Shown here piece by piece: positions 8,593-38,553 of a stretch of 54,165 bases of DNA. Position 1 is the first letter of the stretch. Each line of letters starts with the position of its first letter. The stretch is from Archangiaceae bacterium (lineage in GTDB: Bacteria; Myxococcota; Myxococcia; Myxococcales; Myxococcaceae). The position numbers and the translations under genes were made by a program. The stretch lies in assembly GCA_043750125.1 (NCBI GenBank), contig JAYVCD010000051.1, positions 1 to 54,165 of the forward strand, in the 5' to 3' direction. The notes below the pieces were generated by a model. It searched no databases, was not told the DNA's origin, and was given only the letters and a program-made list of their open reading frames with translations.

Positions 8593-8670
8593 GGCGCCAA
8601 GATATCCAAAGCGCACAGTTCTGGGGTCTGCGCTGACGCTTCAGCCCCGTCTGCCGAGCTCAGCGCAGCA

Positions 8671-12518: not shown

Positions 12519-12600
12519 TCGCCTCGAAAGGTAACAGACGGGGTTGCGCGCGCGGCCCCGGCGAGGTGTTTCGGGGTCCAAGCCGTGGTATCGCAGCTCC

Positions 12601-14649: not shown

Positions 14650-14655
14650 GAATTC

Positions 14656-16230: not shown

Positions 16231-16398
16231 AGCTCGGCCCTGATCCCGAAAACGTCGGATCTGAAGTCTGAAGTGTGAGCTTGTCCCTCCCGCCACATCA
16301 GGGTGTGGTTGGACGGACAAACCCGTCGAAGCGCATTGCGAGCCGGGCGAAGGTCCGCAACTGCCCCAGATAAATCCAGGGCTGCGGCGCGCCAGCAA

Positions 16399-18270
16399 TC
16401 ACATCGAAATCTGACCGTCGATGACGCGGCCGGTGTGAATCTTATCGGCGGCGCGTGAGGCGGCCAGCGCTTCGGCGACCTCGGGGCGCTTGACGATGAC
16501 TACGTCGTTGAGGACCAGCATGTCGATTTGGGTATTGAGGAAGCAGCGCACGGCGTCGGCCGGAGTGTTGACGATCGGCTCACCCTTGACGTTGAAGCTG
16601 GTGTTCATCAGCACGGGAACGCCGGTACGTTTGTGAAACGCGGTGAGCAGCTTGTGGAACTTCGGGTTCTGGTCCGCGGTGACGGTCTGAACGCGCGCGC
16701 TGCCGTCGACGTGGGTGACGGCGGGGATCTTCCCCTTCTTGTCCGCCTTCACCTGCATCACGAACAGCATGTACGGGCTGTCGGGCAGGCCGGTCATGTC
16801 GAACCACTTGTCGGCCTCTTCGGCCAGACAGGCGGGAGCGAACGGGCGGAAACCCTCGCGCAGCTTCACCGCGTGGTTGACCACGTCCTTCATGTCGTCT
16901 CGCCGGGCGTCTGCGAGAATGCTGCGGTTCCCGAGGGCGCGAGGGCCCCATTCCATACGGTCCTGGTACCAGCCGATCACTTTTCCAGCCGCGAGCGCGG
17001 CCGAGACCTCTTCGTAGAGATCTTTGGGCTGGGTGTGTTTGATCTTCGCGTCGAATTCCACCAACGCGCTTTGAACCGCGGTTTCCGGGTGGCCCGGCCC
17101 GAGGTAGACCTGAGGGCTCTTGTTCACCGTCCGCGGCTGCTTGAGCAGGTTGTGGTACCCGTACAACGCGGCGCCGACCGACGTTCCGGAATCGTGCGCG
17201 GCGGGGTGGATCCAGATCTGATCGAACAGGCCGCTGCGAGCGATCTTCCCGTTCATGCTGCAGTTGAGTGACACCCCGCCGGCCATGCACAGGTGCCGTT
17301 CCCCGGTCTCTTTGCGCAGCTGGGTCAGCAGGTGCAGCACGGTGTCTTCGAGCGCCTCTTGCAGCGACGAGGCGATGTCCATGTGCCGCTGGGTCACCGG
17401 CTCGTCTTTCTTGCGCGCCGGCCCCAGGCCCTTGGTCATGCTGGGCGGATACATCGCCTGGTTCTCGCGACCGAACAGGCCGTCGCGGGCCATCAGGTAG
17501 GTGATCAGCCCGGGGCTGACCGAGAAGCTGCCGTCGGGCTTCTTGTGAATGATGCTGCGAAAGTACTCGCGGTACGGAGCCGGGTTTCCATACGGCGCCA
17601 GCCCCATCACCTTGTACTCATCGTGCTTGTCGAAGCCGAGAAACAGGGTGGTGAACGCGTAGAGGTAGCCCAGGCTGTTGGGCGCGTAGGTCTGGCGGAG
17701 GATCTTGATGTCGGTGCCGTTGGCGACGGCCATCATTCCCGAGACGCTCTCGCCTTCCGCATCGAGGGTGACGCACAGGGCGCGCTCGAAGGGCGAGTCG
17801 TAGAAGGTGCTCGAGACGTGGCACATGTGGTGGTTGACGGCCTTGAACTTGCCCTCGCCCAGCCGCATGCCCATGTTCCGCTCGAAGGCGCGGCGGCTGC
17901 GATCGTTGTCGTAGCCTGCGACGCGATTGAAGAGCTTCATCGCGGTGTTGGGAATCCAAAGCGCGGGACGGGCGAGCAGGTTCATCGCCGAGCTGTTGTC
18001 GCTGTACTTCCCCGAGTGAAACATCTGGGGGTACGAGAAATAGTACGAGACGAGGTCGAGCTCGGAAACGTCCTTCAGCCCGGCCTCTTTGAGACAGAAC
18101 TCGATCGCGGCGCGCGGAAATTTTGCGCTGTGCTTCTCGCGGGTGAACCGCTCTTCCTCGCAGGCGGCGACCACCCGCCCGTCAACGACGATTGCGGCGG
18201 CGGCATCGTGGCCCGTGTCGAACTTCGCCGGATAGCCATCGAGGCCACCGTTGTATCCAAGTACCTTCAT
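16399..18270 (-). CDS. Carbamoyltransferase, NodU/CmcH/TobZ family
   Basis: HDAAAA...EEERFTREKH, HHMCH, EYKVMGLAPYG, GPRALGNRSILAD, KLREGFRPFAP, HVDGSARVQTV, NTSFNVKGEPIV. Confidence 0.95.
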   Translation of the reverse strand: MKVLGYNGGLDGYPAKFDTGHDAAAAIVVDGRVVAACEEERFTREKHSAKFPRAAIEFCLKEAGLKDVSELDLVSYYFSYPQMFHSGKYSDNSSAMNLLARPALWIPNTAMKLFNRVAGYDNDRSRRAFERNMGMRLGEGKFKAVNHHMCHVSSTFYDSPFERALCVTLDAEGESVSGMMAVANGTDIKILRQTYAPNSLGYLYAFTTLFLGFDKHDEYKVMGLAPYGNPAPYREYFRSIIHKKPDGSFSVSPGLITYLMARDGLFGRENQAMYPPSMTKGLGPARKKDEPVTQRHMDIASSLQEALEDTVLHLLTQLRKETGERHLCMAGGVSLNCSMNGKIARSGLFDQIWIHPAAHDSGTSVGAALYGYHNLLKQPRTVNKSPQVYLGPGHPETAVQSALVEFDAKIKHTQPKDLYEEVSAALAAGKVIGWYQDRMEWGPRALGNRSILADARRDDMKDVVNHAVKLREGFRPFAPACLAEEADKWFDMTGLPDSPYMLFVMQVKADKKGKIPAVTHVDGSARVQTVTADQNPKFHKLLTAFHKRTGVPVLMNTSFNVKGEPIVNTPADAVRCFLNTQIDMLVLNDVVIVKRPEVAEALAASRAADKIHTGRVIDGQISM

Positions 18271-18411
18271 GGGGCGTGCGAAGAACCCAAATCCGCACAA
18301 GGGTCAAGGGGGGCCCGGCGATCGCCGCAAAATCGTCGGTCGCCCAAGTTGACCCCACGCCCGAAGGTCGAATACGTCCCACCGCCTTGCCCAAAGGGGA
18401 GCCGCGCCACG

Positions 18412-19281
18412 ATGTATTACAAAGTGAAATACAACGAGATCTCCGTCAACTACCTGCCCGAGCTGGACGGCGGGGGGATGACGTTCGGACAGCAGTACCT
18501 GAGCGTCATTCGCGAGAAGATCGGCCGGGTGGGCCACGTGTTCGAGTACTGCGCGGGGCCTGGGTTCATCGGCTTCTCGCTGCTCGCCCACGGACTCTGC
18601 GACCGCCTCACCCTCGCGGACATCAACCCGGCGGCGGTGAAGGCCGTGCAGGCGACCATTCTCGAAAATGGCCTTCAAGATCGGGTCACCGTCTACCAAT
18701 CGGACTGCCTCGACCACATCCCCGCCACTGAGCGCTGGGATCTGGTGGTGAGCAACCCTCCCCACTGGGACGGCACGGAAGAGAGCTACCGCGAAGCGAT
18801 TCGACTCGTGGATCCAGGCTGGGTCATTCACAAACGCTTCTACCGGGACATTCCGAAGTTCTTGAACCCCGATGCTTCGATTCTCTTTCAGGAAAGCTCG
18901 CACGCGACGAAGCGCGATGACTTCGAGCCGATGATCAAAGACAACGGCCTGACTCTGGTCGAGGTGTTCGAAGCCAGCGAGGCCGAGCGAAGGGTTGCAT
19001 TCACCGCTCCGAAGTGGCTCGCGCGCCTGACCCGGGCAGTCGCCCACCGCACGATGCTGCCGATCGAGAAGTTGCTGATGGTGCCCGGCGTCGAGAAGCT
19101 GCTGAAGGACAACAACCTGTACCGGACCATCAGCGCGCTGCCGGGCCTGGCGCCGACTCAGTTCTATTTCATGTGGAGTCGCGCCCAACCGGTCGAGATG
19201 AAGACGACGAGCGCAGCTGCGGCCCCGTTCCTTCGTCCGCCCGTCGAAGCGGCCCGCGTTCCTCCGGCCGAGCTGAACTGA
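18412..19281 (+). CDS. Class I SAM-dependent methyltransferase (NPPx type)
   Basis: FEYCAGPGFIG motif I, LADIN, DLVVSNPPHW; ATG at 18412. Confidence 0.85.
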   Translation: MYYKVKYNEISVNYLPELDGGGMTFGQQYLSVIREKIGRVGHVFEYCAGPGFIGFSLLAHGLCDRLTLADINPAAVKAVQATILENGLQDRVTVYQSDCLDHIPATERWDLVVSNPPHWDGTEESYREAIRLVDPGWVIHKRFYRDIPKFLNPDASILFQESSHATKRDDFEPMIKDNGLTLVEVFEASEAERRVAFTAPKWLARLTRAVAHRTMLPIEKLLMVPGVEKLLKDNNLYRTISALPGLAPTQFYFMWSRAQPVEMKTTSAAAAPFLRPPVEAARVPPAELN

Positions 19282-19289
19282 CCTTAAGC

Positions 19290-21794
19290 TCAGGTCCCTT
19301 CACCGGCGGGCTCGATGCGGCGGGCCATCAACACCGGCAGCACGAGCAACACCGCGGCGACCGCCATCAGCTCTCCGCAGATGGCGGCCCAGCCGAAGCT
19401 GCGCAGCGCTCCGGACTGAGCCATCAGCAAGGACGCATACCCAATCGTGGTCGTGAGCGAGCAAAGGAAGATAGCTCCTCCCATGCGGGCGCACGCCCGG
19501 CGGGCGTCGGTCTTGAACGCGTCCATCGCGCCCAGCAGGTTGACGACGTAGTCCGACCCGATTCCGATCGTGATCGGCAGGGCGGCGAAGTCGAGCATGT
19601 TGAGCTGCACTCCGACGGCGAGCAGGTTCGCCTGAGCGAGCAGCGCGACGACTCCCACGGTGCCGACGACGAGGAAGATTCGCAGCGGCCGGCGAACCAG
19701 CAGGGGGGTGAGCACCAGCGCGACCAGCAAGGCGACGACCAGAATGATCTTCGGGCCCTCGTCGTGCACCAGTCGAATGATCTCGGCCATGAAGAGAAAG
19801 CCACCGCCGATCACCGCGTCGTTCGGCCGTTCGACTTTCTGAAGCTCATCGACGAACGCGAGCACGTTGCGCGAGTCGTTGTAGTCAATCTTCAGCGACG
19901 GAAAGAGCAGCACCACGCGATCGGTGCGCCCATCGATTTCGGTGAAGTTCGCCTTCAGCGTCGCGGGAAGATTCGAAACGGTGATGGTTTCCAGGGCCGC
20001 AGGGGCAAAGAGGCGGTCGAGCCACGGCCGCGCCTTCGCAGGAACCTTCTCGGGCGGAACGGTCTTCAGGACCTTCGAGAGCTTCTTCAGCTTCTCGATG
20101 CGCCGCTGCTGCTCGGCCAGGGGCAGCACCCATTGGTCCACCGTTTCGATTCGTTCGGCCAGTCGGCGCGGACCTTCGACCATCGTCTTGCGCAGCCCCG
20201 CGGCCAGCGGCTCTCGATGCGCGGGGTCGTCGACCAGCACCGCGACGGGGTTCAGCCACATGCCCATCACCTCGGCCAGCCGGGCGTCCCACGAGGCGCT
20301 GCCGTGCTTCAGCGAGTCGCGGTTTCTCAAACCCAGCAGGTCGGTCTCGTAGACCCCGTGCTTGAGCGCGTAGCGAACCCCGAATGCGGCCCCCAGCAGC
20401 GCCAGCAGGACAAAGCCCCCGGCGACCCACCCCGGCAACTTCGGCCGGCTGAAGAAAGACAGGACGAGGCGCTGGGTCTTGCTCTGGCCGCTGCTGCGGG
20501 GCGGGTTGAAGAGCGCGATCGCGACTGGCATCGAAACCATCGTGAAGGCCCAGGTGGTGATCATTCCCAGGCCGCCGATCCACCCGAACTGGGAAAAGCC
20601 CTTGAAGTTCGAGACCGCGAGCCCGCCATACGCCGCCGACGCCGCCAGCGACGCGGCCAGGGTGCCGAAGAAGGCCTGCCGCGAGGCGCTGAGCACCGCG
20701 TGGGGCCGGGGCTCGTCGGCGGCGCGCGAGCGGTAATAGGCGAGGACCAGCAGGGGAAAGTTGATTCCGTTGCCCGCGATGATCGACCCCAGAAACGCGG
20801 TGTTCGAGTTGAGGTGGTGGACGGTGAGCCGACCGATCGCGAAGGTGAAGATCAACCCCGGGGCGAGCGCGAACAGCACGGTGAACAGCCCCCGCAACGA
20901 CCGGAAGTAAAGGAGGATCACCGCGCCCACCAGCAGGAAGACGACCAGCGACGAGAGCGCAATGTCCGCCACGATGGCGTCGTGTTCCTCGATCAGGTTC
21001 GCCAGCTCTCCGTTGAAGGCGACGACCAGCCCGGGCGGGTAGTGGGGTCGCATCACGGCGACTTCCTGTTGAACAGCGGTGAGCAGCCGCAGCGCCGGGT
21101 CGAACTCGGTCTCAGAGCCCGAGAGCTGAATCATCATCACCACCCGCTTTCCTCCCGGGGTCTCGAAGAAGCCGGTGGGGAAACGATCGTTTTGCTGAAT
21201 CTCGCGGGAAAGCTGGTCTTCGAGCTCTTTTGGGTCGGGAGCCGCCTCGTCCTCGAGGTCGACGAACAGCGGGTTGGCCTCGAGCTTGGCTCGGTTGATC
21301 GACTTTTCGGCCTGGGCCATCGCCTGGTCGAACTTCTCGGTGGGCAGCAGCAGCAGCAGGTGCGCTCGCGCCCACTCACACTCTTCGTGACAGCCGACCT
21401 GAATCAACTTCGTTTCGGGCAGCTTGCGCGCCTCGACCCGCTGTCCCAGCTCGCGAATGAAGCGGCGGTTGGCCTCGCCGTCGGGCGACTCGACGATCAC
21501 CACCAGGCGCGTCTGGGAACCGAGGCGCTTTTGAATCGCTTCGATCGCGCGCACTGCGGGAGCGTCGGGCGGCAGCAGCTCGGTAAAGCCCGCCCGAACG
21601 TCCGAGAAGAATTGCGCGGTCAACACCAACGGGTAGACGCACAGCAGAGCCAGCAGCAGGGCCGCAGTTTTTGGGCGGGCGTCGACCCACTGCAACAAGC
21701 GCAGCAGCACAGAAGATGAAGGGCTGGCCGGGGTCAATGCCGTCACCCGCCGACAAATACCATCTGGGTCCCGACCGCAGTTCTCAAAATCCAC
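19290..21794 (-). CDS. MMPL/RND family lipid transporter
   Basis: Two repeats of a periplasmic domain plus TM bundle; GIGSDY, SLTTTIGYASL; start uncertain. Confidence 0.9.
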   Translation of the reverse strand: MDFENCGRDPDGICRRVTALTPASPSSSVLLRLLQWVDARPKTAALLLALLCVYPLVLTAQFFSDVRAGFTELLPPDAPAVRAIEAIQKRLGSQTRLVVIVESPDGEANRRFIRELGQRVEARKLPETKLIQVGCHEECEWARAHLLLLLPTEKFDQAMAQAEKSINRAKLEANPLFVDLEDEAAPDPKELEDQLSREIQQNDRFPTGFFETPGGKRVVMMIQLSGSETEFDPALRLLTAVQQEVAVMRPHYPPGLVVAFNGELANLIEEHDAIVADIALSSLVVFLLVGAVILLYFRSLRGLFTVLFALAPGLIFTFAIGRLTVHHLNSNTAFLGSIIAGNGINFPLLVLAYYRSRAADEPRPHAVLSASRQAFFGTLAASLAASAAYGGLAVSNFKGFSQFGWIGGLGMITTWAFTMVSMPVAIALFNPPRSSGQSKTQRLVLSFFSRPKLPGWVAGGFVLLALLGAAFGVRYALKHGVYETDLLGLRNRDSLKHGSASWDARLAEVMGMWLNPVAVLVDDPAHREPLAAGLRKTMVEGPRRLAERIETVDQWVLPLAEQQRRIEKLKKLSKVLKTVPPEKVPAKARPWLDRLFAPAALETITVSNLPATLKANFTEIDGRTDRVVLLFPSLKIDYNDSRNVLAFVDELQKVERPNDAVIGGGFLFMAEIIRLVHDEGPKIILVVALLVALVLTPLLVRRPLRIFLVVGTVGVVALLAQANLLAVGVQLNMLDFAALPITIGIGSDYVVNLLGAMDAFKTDARRACARMGGAIFLCSLTTTIGYASLLMAQSGALRSFGWAAICGELMAVAAVLLVLPVLMARRIEPAGEGT

Positions 21795-21809
21795 CCGCAG
21801 ACAACGAAG

Positions 21810-22814
21810 TCAGGGACTGTGCCGTTCGGGGTGGGCCAACAGGGTCTCGGGCGAGGCTTCCACCGGCTGCGCAGGCGACATGATCAGCGCGGCCAGGAAT
21901 CCCAGGCCGACCCAGAGCAACACCGCCAGGTGGAACAACACCCCCATCGCGATCGCGTTGCCGCGCGACAGATTGAGCACTTCGGCGGCCAGGGAGTACC
22001 CCATCTCGATGACCCCGACCTGCCCGGGAATGGCATCGCCCGCAGACGAGGCGACGAGATTGATGCCTTGCGACCCAAAGCCTTCGACGATTCCAAAAGT
22101 CCCGCCCACGGCAACCAGCAGCACCATCCGTTGAAGGGTGTCGACGACTCGGCTGAGCACGATGAAGAACAGGGGCCGTCCGATGTTTTGCTGCTCGTTC
22201 CTCAAGTGCTGGTCGACCTTCGAGCCCCAGGCCGCGCCACCCGGAAAAAAACGGCCGAGCTTCGCGACGAAGCCCGCGTGGCGACCGGCGACGATCATCG
22301 CCGAGGCGAGCAGCGCGCTGATCGCGAAGTGACCGAGCACCGCCCAGAAGAGCCAGCCGGTGCCCACCAGCAGCCAGGCGGCGATCAGGCAGGGCACCGA
22401 AATGATCGCGTTGCCCAGCAACGTGACCGCTTGAATCTGCGCAGCCGCAGCAGCCGCGCGCGCAGAGCCGACATAGCGCGAGAGCATCGCCGCCCGCGCC
22501 GCTTCGCCCACGGCGCGCCCAAACGGGAACACCACCACCACCGCGAAGCTGAACATGCTCGAGCGCCAGATTTCGCGCGCAGGAATCCCGCGACGAAGAG
22601 GTCCGTACAGCAACAGCAGCGCCCACGACTCGAAGCCCACCACCAACGCCTGCAGCAGCACCACCAGCGGGAACATCAGCGGGGCATGCGTCACTGCGTC
22701 CCAGACCGACCGGGGGTCCGAATGGTAGACGAGCAAAGCGAGGCAGCCAAAGCCCAGAATCGCCGCCGAGGCGCGACCCAGGCTCGAGCGCGCGAAGGCA
22801 GAGAGCTTCTTCAT
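21810..22814 (-). CDS. Lysylphosphatidylglycerol synthase TM-domain (flippase-like) membrane protein
   Basis: Multiple TM helices; P.GRAVGEAAR and IPGQVGVIE motifs; 4-bp overlap with the upstream gene. Confidence 0.8.
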   Translation of the reverse strand: MKKLSAFARSSLGRASAAILGFGCLALLVYHSDPRSVWDAVTHAPLMFPLVVLLQALVVGFESWALLLLYGPLRRGIPAREIWRSSMFSFAVVVVFPFGRAVGEAARAAMLSRYVGSARAAAAAAQIQAVTLLGNAIISVPCLIAAWLLVGTGWLFWAVLGHFAISALLASAMIVAGRHAGFVAKLGRFFPGGAAWGSKVDQHLRNEQQNIGRPLFFIVLSRVVDTLQRMVLLVAVGGTFGIVEGFGSQGINLVASSAGDAIPGQVGVIEMGYSLAAEVLNLSRGNAIAMGVLFHLAVLLWVGLGFLAALIMSPAQPVEASPETLLAHPERHSP

Positions 22815-24139
22815 CCGGCGATGGCCGAACCGCTTTTCTTCGCCAGCGCGAGGACGTCTCCCAGGCTGCGCCAGACCGTCTCGAAGGCATCGGCGTAGGC
22901 TTCACAGAGCGCCATCGACTGCGCGACCAGAGGGTAGCTTTGCGAAAACAACACCACCGAGCTTGCGAGCAGGGCCGTCGTCTCGGGGTACTGGTCCAGC
23001 GCGTAGCTCACCGGTGCGCCCAGCGCCCACGGAATGCCCTTCCCGTAACCCACCTGGTCGCGGAACAGCTTTTGAGCGGGCACCGGCATCGTCTGCCACA
23101 GCACCGCGTCGACCCCTTCGGCCTTCAACGCGATCAGCACCGCGTCGCGCACCACCTGGGGAGCCTCGTCGATGCCGAGCTTCGTCGCGTCGAGACGAAC
23201 GCGGTACTTGTGAAAGCAGCTGGTGTCGCCGGGGCTCAGCTGCGGAGCCGTGACGCCCGGCAGCTGCGAGAGCCTGGCATTCAAGTACGCCGCGTTGGCC
23301 TGAGCATTGGCGACCCGCGCGTCGAGCCACTGCAGTTGGCTGCGGGCCACCGCCGCCGACAGCTCGGTGATGCGGTACATCCACCCCATCGAGGTCGAGT
23401 CGTAGGCGCGGTTGCCATCGAGGGGACGATCGAGCCGGTAGCTCTGCGCATCGCCCGGCTGCAGGTCCTCGCCGAACATCCGGGTCCGGTTGGCGCGCTC
23501 GAACATCTGATCGTCGTTGGTGACGAACAGGCCTCCCTCGCCACAGGCGAGCGTCTTGGACGATTGCAGGCTGAAGCAGCCGCTGGCTCCGAATGAGCCG
23601 ACCTTTCGGCCTGCGTGGGTGCTGCCGTGCGCCTGGGCCGCGTCTTCGATCATCACCAGGTTGTGCCGGGTGGCAATCGCAGTCAGCGCGTCGAGATCGC
23701 AGGGGGTGCCGTGAATGTGCACCGGGATGATCGCTTTGGTCCGCGCAGTGATCGCCCGCTCGACCAGCGCCGGGTTGAGACCCAACGTCTTCGGCTCGAC
23801 ATCGACGAAGACGGGAATCGCGTTGTGGTGCAGCACCGAGAGCGCAGTCGCGACGAAGCTGAAGGCCGGCATCAAGACTTCATCGCCAGGCCCGACGCCC
23901 GCCGCAGCGACCGCCACGTGCAGCGCTGCCGTGCCGCTGTTGGTGGCAAGGCAATGCTTCACTCCGAGGTACTGCGCGAACTCGCGTTCGAGAGCTCGCA
24001 CTTCAGGCGCGTGCGGGCCAGAGAGCACTCCGCGTTCAATCACGCGGAGCACCGCTTCCCGTTCGGCGGCACCGAGTACAGGCCAGCGAACGTGTGCCCC
24101 GGAAGAAACTCGGGGCGTCCCACCGTTCACCGCAAGCAT
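22811..24139 (-). CDS. DegT/DnrJ/EryC1/StrS PLP aminotransferase
   Basis: NSGTAALH, IPVHIHG, IEDAAQAHG, FSLQSSKTLACGEGG. Confidence 0.93.
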   Translation of the reverse strand: MLAVNGGTPRVSSGAHVRWPVLGAAEREAVLRVIERGVLSGPHAPEVRALEREFAQYLGVKHCLATNSGTAALHVAVAAAGVGPGDEVLMPAFSFVATALSVLHHNAIPVFVDVEPKTLGLNPALVERAITARTKAIIPVHIHGTPCDLDALTAIATRHNLVMIEDAAQAHGSTHAGRKVGSFGASGCFSLQSSKTLACGEGGLFVTNDDQMFERANRTRMFGEDLQPGDAQSYRLDRPLDGNRAYDSTSMGWMYRITELSAAVARSQLQWLDARVANAQANAAYLNARLSQLPGVTAPQLSPGDTSCFHKYRVRLDATKLGIDEAPQVVRDAVLIALKAEGVDAVLWQTMPVPAQKLFRDQVGYGKGIPWALGAPVSYALDQYPETTALLASSVVLFSQSYPLVAQSMALCEAYADAFETVWRSLGDVLALAKKSGSAIAG

Positions 24140-24149
24140 GGCCGAGCCG

Positions 24150-25403
24150 TTACCCAGTCGCCAGGCGACCGCCCGAGACTGCCGCTTTCACGGCGACCGG
24201 CTGGTCTTTGCCCACGACGCGGGTGCCCACGGTCTTCGCCCATTTCTCGAGCAGGCCGTACTGCTTGAACAGGTCGTGCATCGGGCGTTCGCCTTCGCTC
24301 GCGTACGGCGACTTGAAGAACAAAGACATCTGCCGCTGGATCCCGGCATCGCCATTGCGCATCGCCACGTCCATCAAGCGGAAGAGGTCGATGACCAACG
24401 GAGCGGCAAGAATCGAATCTTTGCAGAGGAAGTTGACCTTGATCTGCATCCGCTCGCCGAGGAAGCCTTCGATGTCGATGTTGTCCCACGCTTCCTTCGC
24501 GTCGCCGCGCGGCGGGTAGTAGTGGATGTGGACCTGGTGGTTGGGCACCTTGTACCCAAGGATGTCGTCGATGACGCCGATCTTGCTCTGGATCTTGGTC
24601 TTGTTCGACTCGGGGTCGTTGAGCACCAGCCCGTCGTTGTTGCCGAGGATGTTGGTGGAGTACCAGCCTTCGACCTTGAACTCGCGAATCGCAAAGGCGG
24701 GCGCGAGGACGGTCTTCATCATCGTCTGACCGGTCTTCCCGTCTTCGCCGCAGATCGGAATGCCCGACATCTCAGAGAGCTTCTCGAGCGCGGGAATCTT
24801 GGTCAGGCTGGGAGTGAAGTTGACGTGGGGCACGCCCATCTTGCACGAGACGTAGAGGTACTTCATCGCCGGCGAGATGCGCGCGTCCGAGGCGTTGAGC
24901 GCGGCTTCGAAGGCCGGCACCGTCTTGTGAATGTCGCTGACCTCGGTGAACTTTTCGGTCGAGGCGAGGTTGACCATCACCACCCGGTCGAGATTGTGCA
25001 GCTTCTTGAACGAGGTGATGTTGTCCGAGAGGATCTTGATTTCGTCGCGGAAGGTGTCCGCGCCGACCAGGTGCTTGCCGGCCATGCTGTGAAGAAACTT
25101 CGACGACACCACGCCCGGCCAGGGCTTGATGTTGATCAGGTCTTCCTTCACCTGGTCGAGCATGTGCTTGGGAACCACCCCGTGGGTCAACGCCGCGTCG
25201 TAGACGCTGTCGGCGCGCAGATCCCAACCGCCGAACACCAGCTTCTCGAGCGGAACCACGTCCAGCATCTTCGCCAGGGGTCCATCGGTGAGCATTCCGT
25301 TTCGGGGAGACAGCCCCTTCTTCATCAGGGCCACGCCCGCAACGATGGTGCTGGTAACTGCGCCGTTCAAACCGACAAAGACCACTCCAAGAGATTCGTT
25401 CAC
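24150..25403 (-). CDS. ino1: myo-inositol-1-phosphate synthase
   Basis: GLNGAV, FGGWD, NLASTE, DGKTGQT, NILGNNDG, GDAKEAWD, CKDSILAAPL, FFKSP; GTG start at 25403. Confidence 0.95.
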   Translation of the reverse strand: MNESLGVVFVGLNGAVTSTIVAGVALMKKGLSPRNGMLTDGPLAKMLDVVPLEKLVFGGWDLRADSVYDAALTHGVVPKHMLDQVKEDLINIKPWPGVVSSKFLHSMAGKHLVGADTFRDEIKILSDNITSFKKLHNLDRVVMVNLASTEKFTEVSDIHKTVPAFEAALNASDARISPAMKYLYVSCKMGVPHVNFTPSLTKIPALEKLSEMSGIPICGEDGKTGQTMMKTVLAPAFAIREFKVEGWYSTNILGNNDGLVLNDPESNKTKIQSKIGVIDDILGYKVPNHQVHIHYYPPRGDAKEAWDNIDIEGFLGERMQIKVNFLCKDSILAAPLVIDLFRLMDVAMRNGDAGIQRQMSLFFKSPYASEGERPMHDLFKQYGLLEKWAKTVGTRVVGKDQPVAVKAAVSGGRLATG

Positions 25404-25425
25404 GTTTTTGTCCCCAAAGAAAAAG

Positions 25426-26997
25426 TTACTGGCCCCGCAGGACCATCGCCTGCAGAAGTTCTCGACGGCTCTGATCAATGATGCGCGGAAACTTGTTCTG
25501 AACGCTGTTCATCCCCATCTCTTGCATGAAGCGCCCGGTGGACCCCTTCGGCAGCGCTATCACGACAGGTGACAAAATCGCCACGTCCTTGATCCGGTGT
25601 TCCCGGTAGACCCGGTTCTGCAGACAGAGCTCCTTATCGACCGAAGTCGTGAAGGACTGCAAGTCGGCGGGGGCGCGGTCGAACTCGACGAAGAAAAGGT
25701 ATCGGCCCTTGGCGGTGCCATCGATTCCCACTTCCGAGGACGCGGTGAAGTCGACCAGCGAGCAGGGGTTGACCCGGGTGGCTTCGCTGACGGCGCGCTC
25801 GAGCTCGATGAATGAGGTGAGCTCCTGGGTGACCGAGAGGACGCCTCCGGTGCGGCCGGCGAACTCCATGCGGTGCGGGAAGACCGAGCTGAAGCGAATC
25901 ACATCGCCCATGAAGTAGCTGTACAGCCCGGACGAGGTAGTGACCGCGATCGAGTAGTCGACCCCGGGCTCGACCGCCCACATCGGAACCCGCTTCGCGT
26001 CGCTCTTCCCATGGTCGGCGCGGAGCACGAACTCGAAGAACACCCCACGGTCGGGGATCATCAACATTCCGTTGTCGTCGCTGCGATCGGTCGCGGCGAA
26101 CAGCCCGCCTTCGGTCGCGTTGTAGTTGTCGATCAACGTGGTCTGCCGACCCATGCGTTCGTTGATGATCTGACGGTAGGGGCCGGCGTGAACGCCCCCG
26201 CCGAACAGCGCGGTGAGGTTGGGCCAGATCTCGGCGACGGTCGACACGTTGCGGCCGCGCTTGTTGGCGGTCGCGATCAAACGATCGAAGAAAATCGAGA
26301 ACCAGCAGGTGGTGCCGGTGATGCCGCGGACGTCGTGGTCGAGGTAGGCCTCGGCCATCGCGTCGAGCTTCTGGTCGTAGACTTCGATGTCACGCACCGG
26401 CGGCTGCGGAAGCTGAATCAACCGGGCCGCGCGCGGCATGTGCAGCTGCATCAACCCGGGGTTCGACGAGATCCCGACCGGGCCGTCTTTGCGGATCAGC
26501 GCCGGAGGCAACAGCCCCAGCATGTAGCCGCCGGTCAGCCGCTTGTCGCCGCTGAGGTCCAGGTAGCGGGCGATGATGTCGAAGCCCGCGCGCTGCTGCC
26601 AACGAATCTGCTCGTTGGAAATCGGCAGGTACTTGTGGGCCGCGGTGGTGTTCGAGCTGCCTGACGAGTGCCCGTAATATTCGATGAAGCCCGGGTAGAG
26701 GATGTTGCGCTCGCCCTTGCGCATTCGCTCGAGGTACGGCTCGAAGTCGGCGTAGATCCGCAGCGGAACGCGAGCGGCGTATTCCGCGTACGACGAGATG
26801 GTGTCGAACTTGTGGGCGCGACCGAACTCGGTTTGCGCCGCGCCCCGCACGTGCGCCAACAGCGTCTGTTCCTGCACCTTGCGCAGCCGGGAAGGAGAAG
26901 CCGCGCGGCGGTTCCACTGAAGCACCCGAACTTTTGCGGCGGCCCAAAGGGCAGAACCGGTCGCAAAGTCGGCGCGTGCAATGAGGGGTCGCTTCAT
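25426..26997 (-). CDS. GH3-family acyl-adenylate/amide synthetase
   Basis: TEFGRAH, SSGSS P-loop, IWPNL, YNATEG, TTSSGLYSYFMGD, FAGRT, QNKFPRI. Confidence 0.9.
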   Translation of the reverse strand: MKRPLIARADFATGSALWAAAKVRVLQWNRRAASPSRLRKVQEQTLLAHVRGAAQTEFGRAHKFDTISSYAEYAARVPLRIYADFEPYLERMRKGERNILYPGFIEYYGHSSGSSNTTAAHKYLPISNEQIRWQQRAGFDIIARYLDLSGDKRLTGGYMLGLLPPALIRKDGPVGISSNPGLMQLHMPRAARLIQLPQPPVRDIEVYDQKLDAMAEAYLDHDVRGITGTTCWFSIFFDRLIATANKRGRNVSTVAEIWPNLTALFGGGVHAGPYRQIINERMGRQTTLIDNYNATEGGLFAATDRSDDNGMLMIPDRGVFFEFVLRADHGKSDAKRVPMWAVEPGVDYSIAVTTSSGLYSYFMGDVIRFSSVFPHRMEFAGRTGGVLSVTQELTSFIELERAVSEATRVNPCSLVDFTASSEVGIDGTAKGRYLFFVEFDRAPADLQSFTTSVDKELCLQNRVYREHRIKDVAILSPVVIALPKGSTGRFMQEMGMNSVQNKFPRIIDQSRRELLQAMVLRGQ

Positions 26998-27280
26998 GGG
27001 GGTCAAGGGCGCGGACTAAGTACAGCCCGGCGCGAGAGTCAATGGGGCCTGCCCATCGGGAAAGAGAGAGACGATTCGAAGCGGAAAACAGACGCGCACC
27101 GACGTTCCGGATCGCACGTGCCACGCCACACCCAACCCCTGAAAATCGGGTGCGCAGTCCGCCCAACTGCGCAGCAGTCTGCGCAGTGCAACCCGGGCTG
27201 TCAGTCGAAGCTGCAGTGCAAAGCAGAAATTGTGATACCAACCCGCGCACCCCGCCTGATCGAAATCGAAGCGAAAAACG

Positions 27281-28231
27281 ATGACGAAAACTGAGTATCG
27301 AATTGCGAATGCGCCCTGCTCCTGGGGGATTCTAGATTTTGATCCGACCCATCAGATCGGGTTTTCCAAGCTGCTGGACGAGATTTCTGCGACCGGTTAC
27401 GCCGGCACCGAGCTGGGCGCGTGGGGCTTCATGCCCACCGACGCCGCCAAGCTGCACAGCGAGCTGACCCAGCGCGCCCTGGCGATGGTCGGAGCCTTCG
27501 TCCAGGTGAGCCTCACCGACGAGAAAGCCCACGCCTCGGGCATCGAGACGGCGGTTCGCACCGCGGCGCTGCTGGCGGCCGTTCATCGGATGCAGCCTGA
27601 TGCGCCGGCGCCTCCGCTGGTGCTCTCGGACACCATCGGTGGCAATCCGATGCGAGCCCAGCGCGCCGGCCGCATTCGCCGCGAAGACGGGCTGAAGCCC
27701 GCCCAGTGGGACGTGTTTGCCCGGGGCGCGAATCGAATCGCAGCTGCCGTGCGCGAAGCCACCGGAGTGCGAACGGTCTTTCATCACCACTGCGCAGGCT
27801 TCGTCGAGACGCCAGAAGAAGTCAGCGCCCTGATGGATCGCACCGACCCGACACTGCTGGGGCTGTGCCTCGACACCGGGCACTACACGGTCGGGGGCGG
27901 AGACCAGCTGGGCGACCCGCTGGAAGCGCTGCGCCGCTTTGGCAATCGGGTCTGGCACGTGCATTTCAAGGACTGTCAGCCGGCGGTGGCCGAGATTCGC
28001 GATGGGAACGGCAAGATCACCGGGCACCGTCCGTACTCGGAAGCCGTGAGCAACGACCTGTTTTGCGAGCTGGGAAAAGGAGTGGTCGAGTTTCCAGCGC
28101 TGCTCGCTGAGCTCGATGCCCGCACCTACCAGGGGTGGGTGGTCGTCGAGCAGGACATCTTGCCCGGCGCAGGCGACCCGAAAGCGAGCGCCGGCCGCAA
28201 CCGCGAATACCTGAAGTCTCTGGGGCGCTAA
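27281..28231 (+). CDS. iolE: IolE-like inosose dehydratase (xylose isomerase-like TIM barrel)
   Basis: ANAPCSWG, GYAGTELG, FHHHCAGFVET, LCLDTGH, HVHFKD, FCELGKG, GWVVVEQD. Confidence 0.8.
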   Translation: MTKTEYRIANAPCSWGILDFDPTHQIGFSKLLDEISATGYAGTELGAWGFMPTDAAKLHSELTQRALAMVGAFVQVSLTDEKAHASGIETAVRTAALLAAVHRMQPDAPAPPLVLSDTIGGNPMRAQRAGRIRREDGLKPAQWDVFARGANRIAAAVREATGVRTVFHHHCAGFVETPEEVSALMDRTDPTLLGLCLDTGHYTVGGGDQLGDPLEALRRFGNRVWHVHFKDCQPAVAEIRDGNGKITGHRPYSEAVSNDLFCELGKGVVEFPALLAELDARTYQGWVVVEQDILPGAGDPKASAGRNREYLKSLGR

Positions 28232-28233
28232 CC

Positions 28234-29475
28234 ATGACCACCCCTCTGAAATGGCCCACCTGGCCGGTCGCCGATGAGAACACCTATGCCCGCGTGCGCG
28301 AGGTGCTCGAGAGCGGTCGCTGGGCGATCAGCGGAGCCTCGACGGGCGAGCCGTCGCAAGAGCAGCGGTTCGCCGCCGAGTTTGCGAAGTGGAACGGGGT
28401 GAAGCACTGCGTGACGATGGATCACGGCTCGTCGGCGCTGGTCTCGGCGCTCGAGGCGCTCGACCTGGGTTACGGAGATGAAGTGATCGTCCCCGGGATG
28501 ACGTGGGTGGCCCCGGTGCTGGCGGTGCTGTCGGTGAACGCGACGCCGGTGATCGTCGATGTCGAGCCCGACACCTACTGTCTGTCGGCCGAACGCGCCG
28601 CAGAGGCGGTGACCAAGAAGACCCGCGCGATCCTCCCGGTGCACCTCTACGGCTGCATGGTGGACATGGACGCGATTGAAGCGCTGGCCGCGAAGCACGA
28701 TTTGTGGGTCGTCGAAGACTCGGCCCACAGCCACGGCTCGAAGTGGAAAGGCCGAAACGCCGGCACGATGGGCGACATCGGAATCTTTTCGATGCAGCAG
28801 GGAAAGGTTCTCACCTCGGGCGAGGGCGGAGCGGCAGTCACCGACGACGACACCTTTGCCGAACGGCTCGAGCTGTCGGCGTGGAACTCGCGCCGCCGAT
28901 TGGACCCGAACACCGTCAAGCCGGGCAACCTGCAGCTGGTCGAGACCACGACCCGGTACGGCACCAACCGCTGCCTCTCTGAATTCCAGGCTGCGATTCT
29001 GCTCGACCAGCTTCCGCGGCTCGAAGCGCAGAACCGCAAGCGCGAGAAGAATGCCCATTGGCTCGACGCCAGGCTTTCGGCGATCGAAGGGCTCGAGCCG
29101 ATGCGCAGGCTGCCGCAGATCACCGCTCAGACCTATTACGGCTACGTCATCCGGGTGAAGGCGGCGGCGTTCGGCCAGCCCGCGCTGCCGATGATTCCCC
29201 GACTGCGCGAGCTGCTGGGCATGGGCGATTTTCTGCTGCACGGGGCCTACAAGCCGCTGTCGAACAACCCGCTGTACGCGCCCCACCCGAAGATGCACGC
29301 GCTCGAGCCGGCGTACCGCGCGGCCCTGAAAGTTGCGCATCTGAAGCTGCCAAACTCAGAAGCCGGCTACACGGGCTCGATCGTCTTCCACCACTCGGTG
29401 CTGCTGGGCGACGAGGTGCACATGCAGGCCATCGTCGACGCGTTCACCACTCTTCAGCGCGCCACGAGGTCCTGA
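28234..29475 (+). CDS. Inosose aminotransferase, BtrR/StsC-like (DegT family)
   Basis: WPTWP, GRWAISG, FSMQQGKVLTSGEGG, CLSEFQAAILLDQL, QTYYGYV, IVFHHSVLL match my recollection of BtrR-type aminocyclitol aminotransferases along the full length. Confidence 0.88.
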   Translation: MTTPLKWPTWPVADENTYARVREVLESGRWAISGASTGEPSQEQRFAAEFAKWNGVKHCVTMDHGSSALVSALEALDLGYGDEVIVPGMTWVAPVLAVLSVNATPVIVDVEPDTYCLSAERAAEAVTKKTRAILPVHLYGCMVDMDAIEALAAKHDLWVVEDSAHSHGSKWKGRNAGTMGDIGIFSMQQGKVLTSGEGGAAVTDDDTFAERLELSAWNSRRRLDPNTVKPGNLQLVETTTRYGTNRCLSEFQAAILLDQLPRLEAQNRKREKNAHWLDARLSAIEGLEPMRRLPQITAQTYYGYVIRVKAAAFGQPALPMIPRLRELLGMGDFLLHGAYKPLSNNPLYAPHPKMHALEPAYRAALKVAHLKLPNSEAGYTGSIVFHHSVLLGDEVHMQAIVDAFTTLQRATRS

Positions 29476-29481
29476 GCCGCG

Positions 29482-30033
29482 ATGGGAAAGGTGCTGGTGC
29501 TGTTTCATTCGAACACCGGAAACACCCGGAAGATGGGCGAGCAGGTCGGGGTAGGCGCGGCGGAAGTCCCGGGCACGGAAGTGCGGGTCCGCTCGATCGA
29601 CGAGGCCAACCGCGAAGACCTTTCGTGGTGCGACGGGATCGCGCTCGGCTCGGCCACCAACCTGGGCACCGTGCCCTGGCAGATGAAGAAGTGGTGGGAC
29701 ACCCTGCCCGGCGACGTCTGGCAGTCGCTCGATGGAAAGCTCGGCTGTGCGTTCTCTTCTTCGGGCGGTTGGGGCGGGGGCACCGAGCTGGCGTGCCTCG
29801 AGATGTTGATCGTCCTGATGAACCACGGGCTGGTGGTGTTCGGAGTGACCGACTACGTCGAGAAGCACCACACCCTGCACTACGGAGCGGTGCAGGCGGG
29901 CGAGCCGCGCTCGGAAGAAGAGATCGCTTCGTGCCGGCGGCTGGGTCAGCGAATGGCAGAATGGATCGCGGTATTCGTCGACGGGCGCAAAGACCTGCAC
30001 CCCATCGCCCGCGGGTACAAGCGGCAGTTCTAG
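29482..30033 (+). CDS. Flavodoxin-like WrbA-family oxidoreductase
   Basis: HSNTGNT FMN loop, DGIALGSAT, GKLGCAFSSSGGWGGG. Confidence 0.88.
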   Translation: MGKVLVLFHSNTGNTRKMGEQVGVGAAEVPGTEVRVRSIDEANREDLSWCDGIALGSATNLGTVPWQMKKWWDTLPGDVWQSLDGKLGCAFSSSGGWGGGTELACLEMLIVLMNHGLVVFGVTDYVEKHHTLHYGAVQAGEPRSEEEIASCRRLGQRMAEWIAVFVDGRKDLHPIARGYKRQF

Positions 30034-30722
30034 CGGCTGCCCGCGTCGGCGGCGGCTCGTTTCCCAGCGTCGGACGAAGCGGCGGCAAGCCGGGCAGTGG
30101 CACGAAGGGCGGCCTCACGCTCGACTGCGGCGAACGTCTCGACCGGACCTTTGACGTTGTTCATGTTGGTGAACACCGAGGGAATCATCCCTCCCGGGTC
30201 GGCGCTGAAGCGGTAGATGAGGTGCGCTTTGCCGTTGGCGGCCGGGGTGACCGACCAGGAGCCTTCGGAAATCATCAGCCGGACGACGCCGCTGCGCTGG
30301 GGAATCTTGTCGGGCATCGCGTGCCAGTGGCTGGCGTAGATGCCCTGGGTCCAGGGCTTCCGTGCGTCCTTGTCGATGTAGACCTTGTGGATGAAGTCCC
30401 GAGGCGAGAGCACGGGCATGTCGAGGCGAAGGTAGATGTAGATCGCGCCATCGGGGTCCCGGGGGGCGATCTCTTTGGCTTCGGTCATGTACGGCATGTA
30501 CCGGGTGAAGCGGGACGTGTCGGTGAGGACGTCCTGGATGTCGACGACGTCGCCTTTGATCTCGCCTTCCGCCCAGATTTCTTTGACCCCTCCGTTGGCC
30601 CGGTTGCGCGCCTTGACCACAATCGGCTCGGACTGCAGCGTTTCCCACGCCTGTTCCCCGGCCTTTGCGGCGGCAGCGACGAGTAACGCGACGCAACACA
30701 TCAAGCGGGGAATTCGGGGCAC
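30030..30722 (-). CDS. Secreted START-domain lipid-binding protein
   Basis: Signal peptide; YLRLDMPVLSPRDF, GSW, ADPGGMIP; start at 30722 or 30701. Confidence 0.8.
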   Translation of the reverse strand: MPRIPRLMCCVALLVAAAAKAGEQAWETLQSEPIVVKARNRANGGVKEIWAEGEIKGDVVDIQDVLTDTSRFTRYMPYMTEAKEIAPRDPDGAIYIYLRLDMPVLSPRDFIHKVYIDKDARKPWTQGIYASHWHAMPDKIPQRSGVVRLMISEGSWSVTPAANGKAHLIYRFSADPGGMIPSVFTNMNNVKGPVETFAAVEREAALRATARLAAASSDAGKRAAADAGSR

Positions 30723-30905
30723 GGTTCTTTTTATAACGCGTTCCTTCGAATTCAAATTCAGCACCGCCGGCCGCTGAACCCACGCGCTCGACCGACTTCT
30801 GGGTTGCGCCTCGCTTGTTCGCTGACCGAACGGCCCTCTCGGTGATGCCGAGGGGCGCCGGCAAATTGAGTCTCGCCCGCACCCGAGCGCGTTAATGTCG
30901 GGCGG

Positions 30906-31346
30906 ATGCCACGTTCCAAGAACCCCACCGATGCCGTGTTGAAGCAGCTGCGCGACTTCGGGCTTGCGTACCCCGGCGCTCACACCAAGAGCCCGTGGCC
31001 GGGGCACCTGGACCTGGCGGTCAAAGACAAGACGTTTGCCTACCTGAGCATCGAGGGCGAACCGTTTGGCATCTCGTGCAAGCTTCCCCAGTCGAGCTCG
31101 ATGGCGCTGATGCTGCCCTTCACCGAACCCACCGGCTACGGGCTGGGAAAGAGCGGCTGGGTGTCTGCAAAATTTCCGGAAGGAAAGGCGCCGCCAATCG
31201 AAATGCTCAAAGCGTGGATCGACGAAAGCGACCGAGCGCAGGCTCCGAAGCGGTTGGTCGCCACTTTGACTGGGGAACGTCCGGTCGGGGTGGTTACGGT
31301 TCGAGCGACGAAAAAGAAGGCAGCGCGATCGGCTGCCAAACGATGA
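30906..31346 (+). CDS. MmcQ/YjbR family protein
   Basis: PW..H...VKDKTF, PTGYGLGKSGWV, WIDES...APKRL. Confidence 0.88.
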   Translation: MPRSKNPTDAVLKQLRDFGLAYPGAHTKSPWPGHLDLAVKDKTFAYLSIEGEPFGISCKLPQSSSMALMLPFTEPTGYGLGKSGWVSAKFPEGKAPPIEMLKAWIDESDRAQAPKRLVATLTGERPVGVVTVRATKKKAARSAAKR

Positions 31347-31356
31347 AGGGGCCAAG

Positions 31357-37983: not shown

Positions 37984-38162
37984 GGACCCCGGCAGAGCAA
38001 TTTCGGGACCGAAACCATCGAGTTTCAGTGGTTCCCAACGTGCTGCGATTCTTCAGTAAACTCCGAGAGGTCGCACCTTGCGCCCGAACGATTCTGCCCA
38101 CTTCTGTGCTCGGTGGACTGAGGAAGCTTCACCTCGTTTCGGACAGGGCCAAATCGGGGACT

Positions 38163-38552
38163 TCAATCGGTCAGTGCGACGGCGTCGATCTCGAGCAGGA
38201 ACGCGGGGTCGGCGAGGCTGGAAACGACCAGCAGGGTGGTCGCGGGGGGCGCGGCCGAGAAGTACTTGTCGCGCCCGTCGCGAATGTGGGGCCGGTAGTG
38301 CTTGAGGTCGGTGGTGTAGATGTTGAGCTTCACCACGTCGGCCAGGCTCGCGCCGGACCCTTCGACCACCGCCTTCAAGTTTCGGAACACCTGGTCCACC
38401 TGGGCGACGATGTCCCCCGGGCCGACCAATGTCCCGTCGAGGCCTTTGGACACCTGCCCGGCGATGAACACGATGTTCCCGCGCCGCACCGCGTGGCTGT
38501 AGCCCTTGGCTTCATAGACCCCCTTCGGCTTGATCCGCTCGAGCGGGGCCAC
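38163..38552 (-). CDS. RidA/YjgF/UK114 family protein
   Basis: YSHAVR, FIAGQV, DVVKLNIY, PATTLLVVSSL...LEIDAVA; GTG start at 38552. Confidence 0.9.
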   Translation of the reverse strand: MAPLERIKPKGVYEAKGYSHAVRRGNIVFIAGQVSKGLDGTLVGPGDIVAQVDQVFRNLKAVVEGSGASLADVVKLNIYTTDLKHYRPHIRDGRDKYFSAAPPATTLLVVSSLADPAFLLEIDAVALTD

Positions 38553-38553
38553 G

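Follow-up and report, generated by a model that had tools for sequence, protein, structure and literature searches.

The closest described counterpart of the system reported here is the OlsH/OlsI ornithine-lipid pathway of Singulisphaera acidiphila, in which OlsH is a proven ATP-dependent fatty-acyl amide synthetase that couples ornithine to free fatty acids at the expense of ATP, yielding N-acyl ornithine (PMC12493201, published in 2025; statements on cited literature refer throughout to the parts of each source available to us). Its authors expected OlsH homologs outside the planctomycetes to use other amino acids (PMC12493201; review PMC12971839). We analyzed a stretch of 54,165 nucleotides from an Archangiaceae bacterium, hereafter the window, in which a cluster of ten genes at 16399-30033 includes a GH3 ligase, an inositol-phosphate synthase (MIPS), aminotransferases, a flippase-like membrane protein and an RND transporter. 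We propose, with a probability of roughly 55%, that this cluster makes an amide lipid without phosphorus, headed by an amino-inositol (inosamine), and exports it. The likeness to the OlsH/OlsI pathway lies in a GH3-like ATP activation of a free fatty acid, an amide bond to an amine head group and a product free of phosphorus (PMC12493201; PMC12971839). The differences are that the window's GH3 is partnered by MIPS and an aminotransferase and not by OlsI, that an aminocyclitol amine is proposed instead of an amino acid, and that flippase-like and RND genes are added; the word inositol occurs 0 times in the available text of these two papers. Judged from sequence, the pathway is probably an OlsH-type aminolipid route with a new head-group class and an export module of its own.

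A second point of comparison is the inositol-lipid cluster BT_1522-BT_1526 of Bacteroides thetaiotaomicron, which has the same type of MIPS and whose neighbor BT_1521 is annotated as a lysylphosphatidylglycerol synthase (PMC9246714). In contrast to that cluster, the window's cluster lacks genes for a CDP-alcohol phosphatidyltransferase, a PIP phosphatase and an IPC synthase and has an aminotransferase and a GH3 ligase instead, so that an amide would take the place of the phosphodiester in linking the head group to the lipid. Aminoglycoside pathways contain inosose aminotransferases (BtrR, structures 2C7T and 2C81; structures 5W70 and 5W71), to which both DegT2 of the window and the DegT protein of a variant locus in genus g36 score 375-399 bits. 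These pathways differ from the window's cluster, which has no 2-deoxy-scyllo-inosose synthase, glycosyltransferase or amidinotransferase, and whose amine is proposed to go to an amide ligase and lipid export. A route through IolG and MosB leads to scyllo-inosamine, as in rhizopine, and the IolG-aminotransferase pair of the g36 variant follows the same logic from inositol through inosose to inosamine. Hopanoid clusters come into the comparison through the HpnL/HpnN pair: HpnL is the only NCBIfam model touched by the flippase-like protein (20 bits) and HpnN gives the best match of the RND pump (149 bits), both far below their cut-offs of 196 and 752. That pair accompanies a lipid with an aminocyclitol-type head group, bacteriohopanetetrol cyclitol ether; however, no squalene-hopene cyclase and no HpnI, HpnJ or HpnK homolog was seen in the window. 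Among N-acyl aminocyclitol products is hygromycin A. The nabscessins also carry an acyl group on the aminocyclitol nitrogen through an amide (PMC11364655). Unlike the product proposed here, both have aromatic acyl groups and are secreted actinomycete antibiotics. The clusters of these compounds are not known to us to include a GH3 ligase, a flippase-like protein or an RND carrier of lipids. In the literature searched, judged largely from titles and the openings of abstracts, no account of an inosamine or aminocyclitol amide lipid came to light, and the available part of a 2019 survey of myxobacterial clusters reported three saccharide-class clusters (including aminoglycoside/aminocyclitol subtypes) without sequence similarity to clusters of known product.

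The window belongs to a metagenome-assembled genome (MAG) of 6.17 Mb in 460 contigs (89% complete, ~65% GC), and its closest public loci are in MAGs labelled Myxococcaceae or Archangiaceae. Reading frames were picked by codon-position GC and genes were named through Pfam and NCBIfam profile matches. All ten genes named in an earlier sequence-only reading of this DNA are present at or near the places where it had put them, with agreeing profile matches, and the cluster genes occupy frames with a coding-type third-position GC of 0.78-0.86. We then relied on comparison with related genomes (loci, genomes, contigs, genera and families are numbered L, G, C, g and f). A scan with one genome per species returned 15 loci, 13 of them in Myxococcota at 55-93% identity and 2 distant, and a six-frame search of 401 Myxococcota genomes from 154 genera found a GH3 match (E<=1e-40) in 41 genomes, including the window's own, and in 17 of the 154 genera. 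MIPS was present in 28 of the 40 other GH3 genomes. In 26 of these 28 it was the next gene downstream of GH3, in the same orientation and no more than 65 bp away; the two exceptions were G384, with GH3 and MIPS at facing contig ends, and G003, with a non-adjacent GH3 of 30% identity. The 12 GH3 genomes lacking MIPS comprised three of genus g36, eight of family f14 (GH3 ~50% identical, a paralog class) and one distant match. An aminotransferase adjoined the GH3/MIPS locus in 28 of the 30 other genomes with a GH3 ortholog. Given the GH3-MIPS adjacency in 26/28 and the aminotransferase alongside in 28/30, the grouping is more than chance. The expectation that the genes would co-occur elsewhere in Myxococcota was thus borne out in at least 13 genera, where a failure to co-occur had been named as the outcome that would speak against the cluster.

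Gene order was conserved as well. Loci from genera g6, g7, g24, g59 and g66 (L020, L023-L028) have the order GH3-MIPS-DegT1-LPG_synthase_TM, with an ortholog of the MMPL-type RND transporter (49-64% identity) next in 5 of these 7; in the two g7 loci (L025, L026, of which L025 was domain-scanned), an aldo-keto reductase and a GMC oxidoreductase occupy the position held by a phosphatase gene elsewhere. In the window the same series runs along the minus strand as GH3 (25426-27006), MIPS (24150-25403), DegT1 (22811-24139), the stand-alone LPG_synthase_TM protein (21810-22814) and the MMPL/HAE3-type, HpnN-like RND transporter (19290-21794), and a divergent unit on the plus strand holds DegT2 (28234-29475).

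The aminotransferases provide the second line of evidence. Both are PF01041 proteins of the DegT/DnrJ/EryC1 family, which use pyridoxal phosphate. A DegT1-type protein (E<=1e-60) was found in 24 of the 30 other genomes with a GH3 ortholog, directly after MIPS in 23 and at a contig break in one, and a DegT2-type protein (E<=1e-70) was found in exactly the remaining six, beside GH3 in five. Those six are three genomes of the window's genus (84-89% identity) and three of g36 (43-45%). The three other genomes of the window's genus have no DegT1, and in loci L003 and L013 of this genus MIPS leads directly to the flippase-like gene. Since all 30 other genomes carry one type, DegT1 and DegT2 look like alternatives, and this replacement of one by the other is, like the gene families and their order, a direct observation; both types occur together only in the window's genome. 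The idea that two aminotransferases yield a diaminocyclitol, put forward in the sequence-only reading, does not describe a conserved feature of these loci.

DegT2 (PF01041 279 bits; ORF, open reading frame, opening at 28135, with the true start likely at ATG 28234, right after the stop codon of the preceding IolE-like gene) scored 399 bits with 5W71, 398 with 2C7T (BtrR) and 319 with 5W70, which are all L-glutamine:2-deoxy-scyllo-inosose aminotransferases, and its next match was AHBA synthase at 163 bits, with ArnB at 143. By this kinship it is predicted to be a BtrR-like inosose aminotransferase. The DegT protein of the g36 variant gave 381, 376 and 375 bits with 2-deoxy-scyllo-inosose aminotransferases, against 188 for the next match. 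DegT1 (PF01041 317 bits) found its best solved relative in 8GYH (Fic25, 342 bits), followed by perosamine synthetase (206 bits) and 5W70 (205 bits); in this structure-sequence search it was not closest to the proven inosose aminotransferases, and its link to inosose rests on gene context. The protein of the sister entry 8GYJ is Fic25, an enzyme of the ficellomycin pathway whose substrate for amination is a keto amino acid bound to a carrier protein (PMC11726168); a literature search for structure 8GYH or for DUF4833, a domain met in the g36 variant, found nothing by those names. Neither aminotransferase appears nearest to an NDP-sugar aminotransferase, so that the objection that both might act on nucleoside-diphosphate (NDP) sugars only, raised in advance by the sequence-only reading, finds no backing in these scores.

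The variant in genus g36 (L004, L005, L006, L012) bears on the same question from another side. MIPS was found in 0 of 3 genomes of this genus, and L005 and L012 have the order GFO/IDH/MocA oxidoreductase-DegT-GH3, where the oxidoreductase of L005 is an equivalog of IolG, inositol 2-dehydrogenase (430.8 bits; cut-off 355). Upstream lie genes for an outer-membrane efflux protein, an LPG_synthase_TM protein and a secreted DUF4833 protein, and downstream a CrtI-like flavoprotein and a methyltransferase. In a maximum-likelihood tree of 28 GH3 sequences (a quick search, with SH-aLRT support only), the g36 variant was nested within the MIPS-linked group as sister to the window's clade, and the f14 sequences branched first. 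The nesting of an IolG/DegT2-like variant within the MIPS/DegT1 group fits one shared type of amine substrate. A further g36 locus, L006, has an FGE-sulfatase/DinB protein, a 3-dehydroquinate-synthase-like gene and a LuxS-like gene upstream of DegT-GH3 (L006 2663-6581); the second of these may encode a sugar-phosphate cyclase, another cyclitol route that would feed the aminotransferase.

The GH3 protein has the N, M and C domains of its family, all above the cut-off of 23.6 bits (PF03321 99, PF23571 52, PF23572 56). Its sole NCBIfam match was OlsH (NF052613) at 243.9 bits, and its orthologs in other genera scored 220-279 bits on the same model. The protein is nearer to OlsH (244 bits) than to plant GH3 enzymes (~58 bits). 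The HMMER alignment set its 'SSGSS' opposite 'SSGTS' of rice GH3.8 and its 'YSYFMGDV' opposite 'YRVGDV', which we take to be the Ser/Gly-rich and Y..GD nucleotide-binding motifs. We propose that it is an ATP-dependent ligase that would N-acylate the aminocyclitol. The window's genome carries a second GH3 paralog, 50% identical and cut by the end of contig C22 (L019 7783-11439), downstream of which come a small VapB-like ORF and a gene for a 505-aa esterase, in this order, with three GT4 glycosyltransferase and two ATP-grasp genes nearby; paralog and esterase may be the OlsH/OlsI-like aminolipid pair of this genome.

MIPS (PF07994, NAD_binding_5, 214 bits; PF01658, Inos-1-P_synth, 124 bits) is a single-copy gene in the window's genome; its ORF extends to 25478, and the likely true start is GTG 25403, behind GGGGA. 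Its best solved relative was 7NWR, the Bacteroides MIPS BT_1526 (311 bits), and it fell far short of the actinobacterial model TIGR03450 (26 vs 638 bits). A gene of the Inositol_P monophosphatase family (174-202 bits) lies between the flippase-like gene and MMPL in L023, L024 and L027, and the window's genome has an unlinked homolog on contig C141. The sequence-only reading had called the pathway incomplete for want of a glycosyltransferase, an inositol dehydrogenase and a phosphatase. Domain scans agreed that the window's cluster contains none of the three; the monophosphatase in the operons of relatives now answers the phosphatase part of that remark, and the dehydrogenase part stands, as taken up below. 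Glycosyltransferase domains were found neither in 12544-31355 nor in the conserved core of the relatives, and domain scans of that core in the window and its relatives detected no nucleotidyltransferase and no NDP-sugar dehydratase either. In G248, a single contig of 9 Mb, the operon MIPS (C1:869356-870544; L020 11297-12542) matches as two pieces in different frames that join at residue 148, reflecting either a frameshift or an assembly error.

For the oxidation of inositol, the GMC flavin oxidoreductase at 14656-16230 on the plus strand is only a candidate (GMC_oxred_N 145 bits, GMC_oxred_C 81; solved relatives at no more than 49 bits; NCBIfam models far below cut-off). Genes of this family flank the operon or form part of it in L003, L009, L020 and L024-L028 and are of two types, 31-33% and 65-85% identical. 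A family search for IolG in the window's genome found nothing at E<=1e-30, an absence that stays unproven in a genome 89% complete, and a tblastn search of it with the IolG of the g36 variant gave a best hit of 28% identity, beside an unrelated DegT paralog on C49. The aldehyde dehydrogenase next to the GMC gene (12544-14649, plus strand, 701 aa with a C-terminal extension; PF00171 416 bits) adjoins the GH3 operon in genera g1, g6, g7 and g24 and is a possible accessory gene with an uncertain link to the cluster. We do not regard it as specific to this system: its homologs occur in 81 of the 401 genomes, compared with 41 for GH3, and many of those genomes have no GH3. Farther off, the 835-aa protein encoded at 6133-8640 unites a DAO-type FAD oxidoreductase with an aminomethyltransferase (GCV_T) domain and is of the dimethylglycine/sarcosine dehydrogenase type, and this fusion together with the aldehyde dehydrogenase and GMC genes could instead indicate choline or betaine metabolism.

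Three proteins suggest lipid handling. The stand-alone LPG_synthase_TM protein (PF03706 52 bits, cut-off 33.4; 334 aa with ~5 hydrophobic stretches) is encoded by a gene that overlaps DegT1 by 4 bp, and is conserved after the aminotransferase in L003, L013, L020 and L023-L028. Pfam and NCBIfam scans found no aminoacyl-PG synthase domain of MprF in it, and we propose that it is a flippase, at most the flippase half of MprF. ORF 21784-22905 was set aside as the frame of this gene, having no family match and the wrong codon-position GC; the overlapping frame 21810-22814 matches. Both types of inositol-lipid cluster in Bacteroides have a recurring neighbor with the annotation lysylphosphatidylglycerol synthase (PMC9246714). 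The RND transporter (PF03176 74.5 bits) had its best NCBIfam matches with HpnN TIGR03480 (149 bits, cut-off 751.85) and BstA (79 bits, cut-off 1400), alongside 83 bits with NF052374 (cut-off 1100), and orthologs of 49-78% identity stand in the operons of L003, L013, L020, L023, L024, L027 and L028; it is proposed to export the lipid to the outer membrane. Convergent on the cluster, at 30030-30701 on the minus strand, lies a gene for a START-like protein, 223 aa long and bearing a signal peptide for secretion. It is a putative periplasmic lipid carrier, of which a homolog is found directly upstream of GH3 in L020. The gene probably begins at 30701, and the long minus-strand ORF 30030-31355 is probably not all coding: homologs align to residues 234-408 only, apart from a separate weaker match in L003 to residues 33-156, and the N-terminal 218 residues (window 30702-31355) are arginine-rich and mostly without an aligning homolog. 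An AlphaFold model of the START-like protein, made from a 4-sequence alignment, reached a mean pLDDT of 54.9 and was too poor for use. In family f14 (L034 9411-14445; L035 9513-14622), a GH3 gene of ~50% identity is followed by LPG_synthase_TM-like and MMPL genes without MIPS or aminotransferase, and from this set without head-group genes the ligase, flippase and pump parts look modular.

Taken together, these genes suggest the following route, in which all substrates, the product and its membrane destination are predictions. MIPS would convert glucose-6-phosphate into inositol phosphate, and a monophosphatase, encoded in the operon in relatives and unlinked in the window's genome, would release free myo-inositol. 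An oxidoreductase (IolG in the sister variant, with the GMC flavoenzyme as a mere candidate in the window) would yield inosose, which a DegT aminotransferase, usually DegT1 and alternatively the BtrR-like DegT2, would turn into inosamine. The OlsH-like GH3 would adenylate a free fatty acid and join it to this amine. The LPG_synthase_TM protein would then flip the lipid over the inner membrane, and the HpnN-like RND pump, perhaps aided by the secreted START-like protein, would move it outward. For a core of MIPS, phosphatase, aminotransferase, one amide ligase, flippase-like protein and RND pump, an N-acyl-inosamine brought to the cell envelope would be the most economical product. In the window's genus, the product would also be O-carbamoylated and probably N-methylated, and the IolE-like/DegT2/flavodoxin unit may rework it further. 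The sequence-only reading had likewise imagined an aminocyclitol derived from inositol, N-acylated by GH3 and handled as a membrane lipid by the flippase-like and MMPL proteins; that part has gained from the co-occurrence of the genes, the OlsH kinship of GH3, the kinship of DegT2 and the IolG variant, and its diaminocyclitol part has found no support. The wider statement, that many soil and sediment Myxococcota make an N-acyl-inosamine envelope lipid through GH3, with flippase, RND pump and periplasmic carrier, and that in the window's genus it is carbamoylated, N-methylated and possibly given a second amino group, is one we hold tentatively, at somewhat less than an even chance.

Several observations weigh against this proposal. 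DegT1, the aminotransferase of most operons, appears nearest to Fic25, whose substrate is not an inosose, and an IolG equivalog above cut-off was found in 3 of the 31 operon genomes only, all of g36. Because the other 28, including the window's own, have none, the MIPS-type operons may oxidize inositol by a new route, for example through the GMC flavoenzyme. A small-genome lineage (L008, L011, L030) retains only GH3-MIPS-DegT1, behind which lie genes for an AAA_28 protein and for a secreted protein without known family, and no adjoining flippase-like or MMPL gene was found there. GH3 scores 244 bits where the OlsH cut-off is 620, and Pfam and NCBIfam scans of the cluster found no OlsI-type alpha/beta-hydrolase O-acyltransferase, so that the product might be single-chained. 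The START-like assignment is weak (PF01852 19.4 bits, below the cut-off of 22). Finally, the switch of aminotransferase type may have happened perhaps only twice, and the kinship of the genomes means that our counts overstate the number of independent observations.

Other explanations have to be set beside the inosamine-lipid pathway. The cluster might make an antibiotic or signal that leaves the cell, an aminocyclitol whose nitrogen bears an aromatic or short acyl group, for which GH3 would activate a non-fatty acid and the RND and LPG_synthase_TM proteins would serve efflux only; the acid could perhaps arise from an alcohol by way of the aldehyde, through the GMC oxidoreductase and the aldehyde dehydrogenase, genes for which lie near the operon in several genera. 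Plant GH3 enzymes do conjugate hormone-type acids, but the nearest characterized relative of the window's GH3 uses fatty acids (PMC12493201). Nocardia makes N-aroyl 2-deoxy-scyllo-inosamines, the nabscessins (PMC11364655), and NovN, GdmN and TobZ, the nearest solved relatives of the cluster's carbamoyltransferase, all tailor antibiotics; however, domain scans detected no polyketide, nonribosomal peptide or aromatic-acid genes in the conserved core. MMPL-family pumps also export secondary metabolites, and the RND protein reaches 47 bits on the actII model TIGR00833, but it scores best with HpnN and BstA, carriers of hopanoids and sterols, and it is not obvious what an MprF-type flippase domain would do in the export of a soluble molecule. 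On balance we consider a secreted product unlikely.

It is also conceivable, and in our judgment improbable, that the amine used by GH3 is not an aminocyclitol at all, and that DegT1 aminates a keto acid, a keto lipid or an NDP-sugar while inositol has a use of its own, for instance as a solute or in the head group of another lipid. The carrier-bound, non-sugar substrate of Fic25 (PMC11726168) would agree with this, but the conserved core has no carrier protein, no nucleotidyltransferase and no transferase that would attach inositol in another way. The lack of an inositol dehydrogenase equivalog in 28 of 31 genomes points in the same direction, as does the breadth of the inositol monophosphatase family, which also holds histidinol-phosphatase and CysQ-type enzymes; on the other side, MIPS stands between GH3 and DegT1 in 23 genomes, and an aminotransferase of the inosose type takes over exactly where DegT1 is absent, with IolG added in one lineage. 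Very improbable, in our estimate, is a chance neighborhood in which the IolE-like/DegT2/flavodoxin genes serve the catabolism of inositol or a rhizopine-like inosamine beside an unrelated lipid operon. IolE acts in catabolism, the TIM-barrel protein has no solved relatives other than IolE proteins, and rhizopine catabolism uses an IolE-like protein. The unit is moreover confined to one genus, but in the three other genomes of that genus DegT2 is the sole aminotransferase beside GH3-MIPS, the divergent control region is conserved, and domain scans of the unit showed neither the transporter nor the regulator typical of a catabolic locus.

Around the widely conserved core, the carbamoyltransferase, methyltransferase, IolE-like, DegT2 and flavodoxin-like genes of the window were found only in loci of its own genus (L001-L003, L013). 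The O-carbamoyltransferase of the NodU/CmcH/TobZ family (16399-18300, minus strand; Carbam_trans_N 180 bits, Carbam_trans_C 249) has NovN (399 bits), GdmN (385) and TobZ (290) as solved relatives, remains below the NodU equivalog cut-off (197 vs 1000 bits) and has orthologs 90-92% identical in L003 and L013; as a member of this family it is predicted to carry out O-carbamoylation. The MTS-type S-adenosylmethionine-dependent methyltransferase (PF05175 46.5 bits, NPPH motif; best NCBIfam models PrmC and RsmC, both below cut-off) has orthologs 82-84% identical in the same two loci and, judged by its family, probably acts on nitrogen. Its gene lies at 18412-19281 on the plus strand and not, as the sequence-only reading had it, on the minus strand; the minus-strand ORF 18304-19188 has non-coding codon-position GC and zero family matches. 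The IolE-like protein, a TIM barrel of the xylose-isomerase fold (27281-28231, plus strand; PF01261 80 bits; TIGR04379 IolE 161.7, under the cut-off of 290), has the IolE structures 3CNY (95 bits) and 9ZMU (72 bits) as its only solved relatives, is limited to L001-L003 and is possibly an inosose dehydratase or isomerase. The flavodoxin-fold, WrbA-like FMN protein (29482-30033, plus strand; PF00258 26 bits; WrbA models 74 and 68 bits, sub-cut-off) has orthologs 85-88% identical in L002 and L003. We speculate that the IolE-like and flavodoxin-like pair dehydrates inosose before a second amination, or supplies DegT2 with a keto substrate.

The divergent control region of 274 bp between GH3 and the IolE-like gene (27007-27280) contains two elements. 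One is a palindromic repeat, CTGCGCAG-N5-TGCGCA, spanning 27167-27186; the other, TGGC-N8-TGC, occupies 27114-27128 of the minus strand, points to GH3 and lies ~110 nt upstream of its start. Both elements are kept in 4 of 4 genus-level loci amid variable flanking sequence, and each is commoner than in shuffled sequence. The second fits the GG-N10-GC spacing of sigma-54 promoters, and a search with the sigma-54 pattern gave a single match.

Beyond the cluster, the window holds several genes that we record as neighbors. Three kilobases away, at 33048-34938 on the plus strand, a gene for an APH-family phosphotransferase (325 aa) overlaps one for a protein of the HopA1-effector family (307 aa). 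At 34928-38052, a DUF1552 (HXXSHH) protein adjoins a protein with DUF1587, DUF1592, DUF1595, DUF1588 and DUF1585, a planctomycete-type domain set. A RidA/L-PSP protein (38163-38639) and two divergent class-III aminotransferases (38554-39960, minus strand; 39954-41363, plus strand) follow, and after these (38163-41363) come a histidine kinase and a hybrid kinase.

Within the literature searched, as far as its available parts go, amide aminolipids are known with amino-acid head groups only, and bacterial membrane-lipid head groups without phosphate affect stress tolerance, antibiotic resistance and cell recognition. The operon described here is compact, with five to six core genes, and is present in 13 or more of the 154 genera sampled, with some of its genomes in few contigs, which makes the prediction directly testable. 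If the proposal is true, the widespread bacterial homologs of GH3/OlsH would gain a second class of substrate, and stand-alone LPG_synthase_TM proteins, which recur beside the inositol-lipid genes of Bacteroides, would gain a function. In these Myxococcota, an aminocyclitol head group would join two hitherto unconnected fields, the cyclitol chemistry of the aminoglycoside type and the synthesis of membrane lipids.

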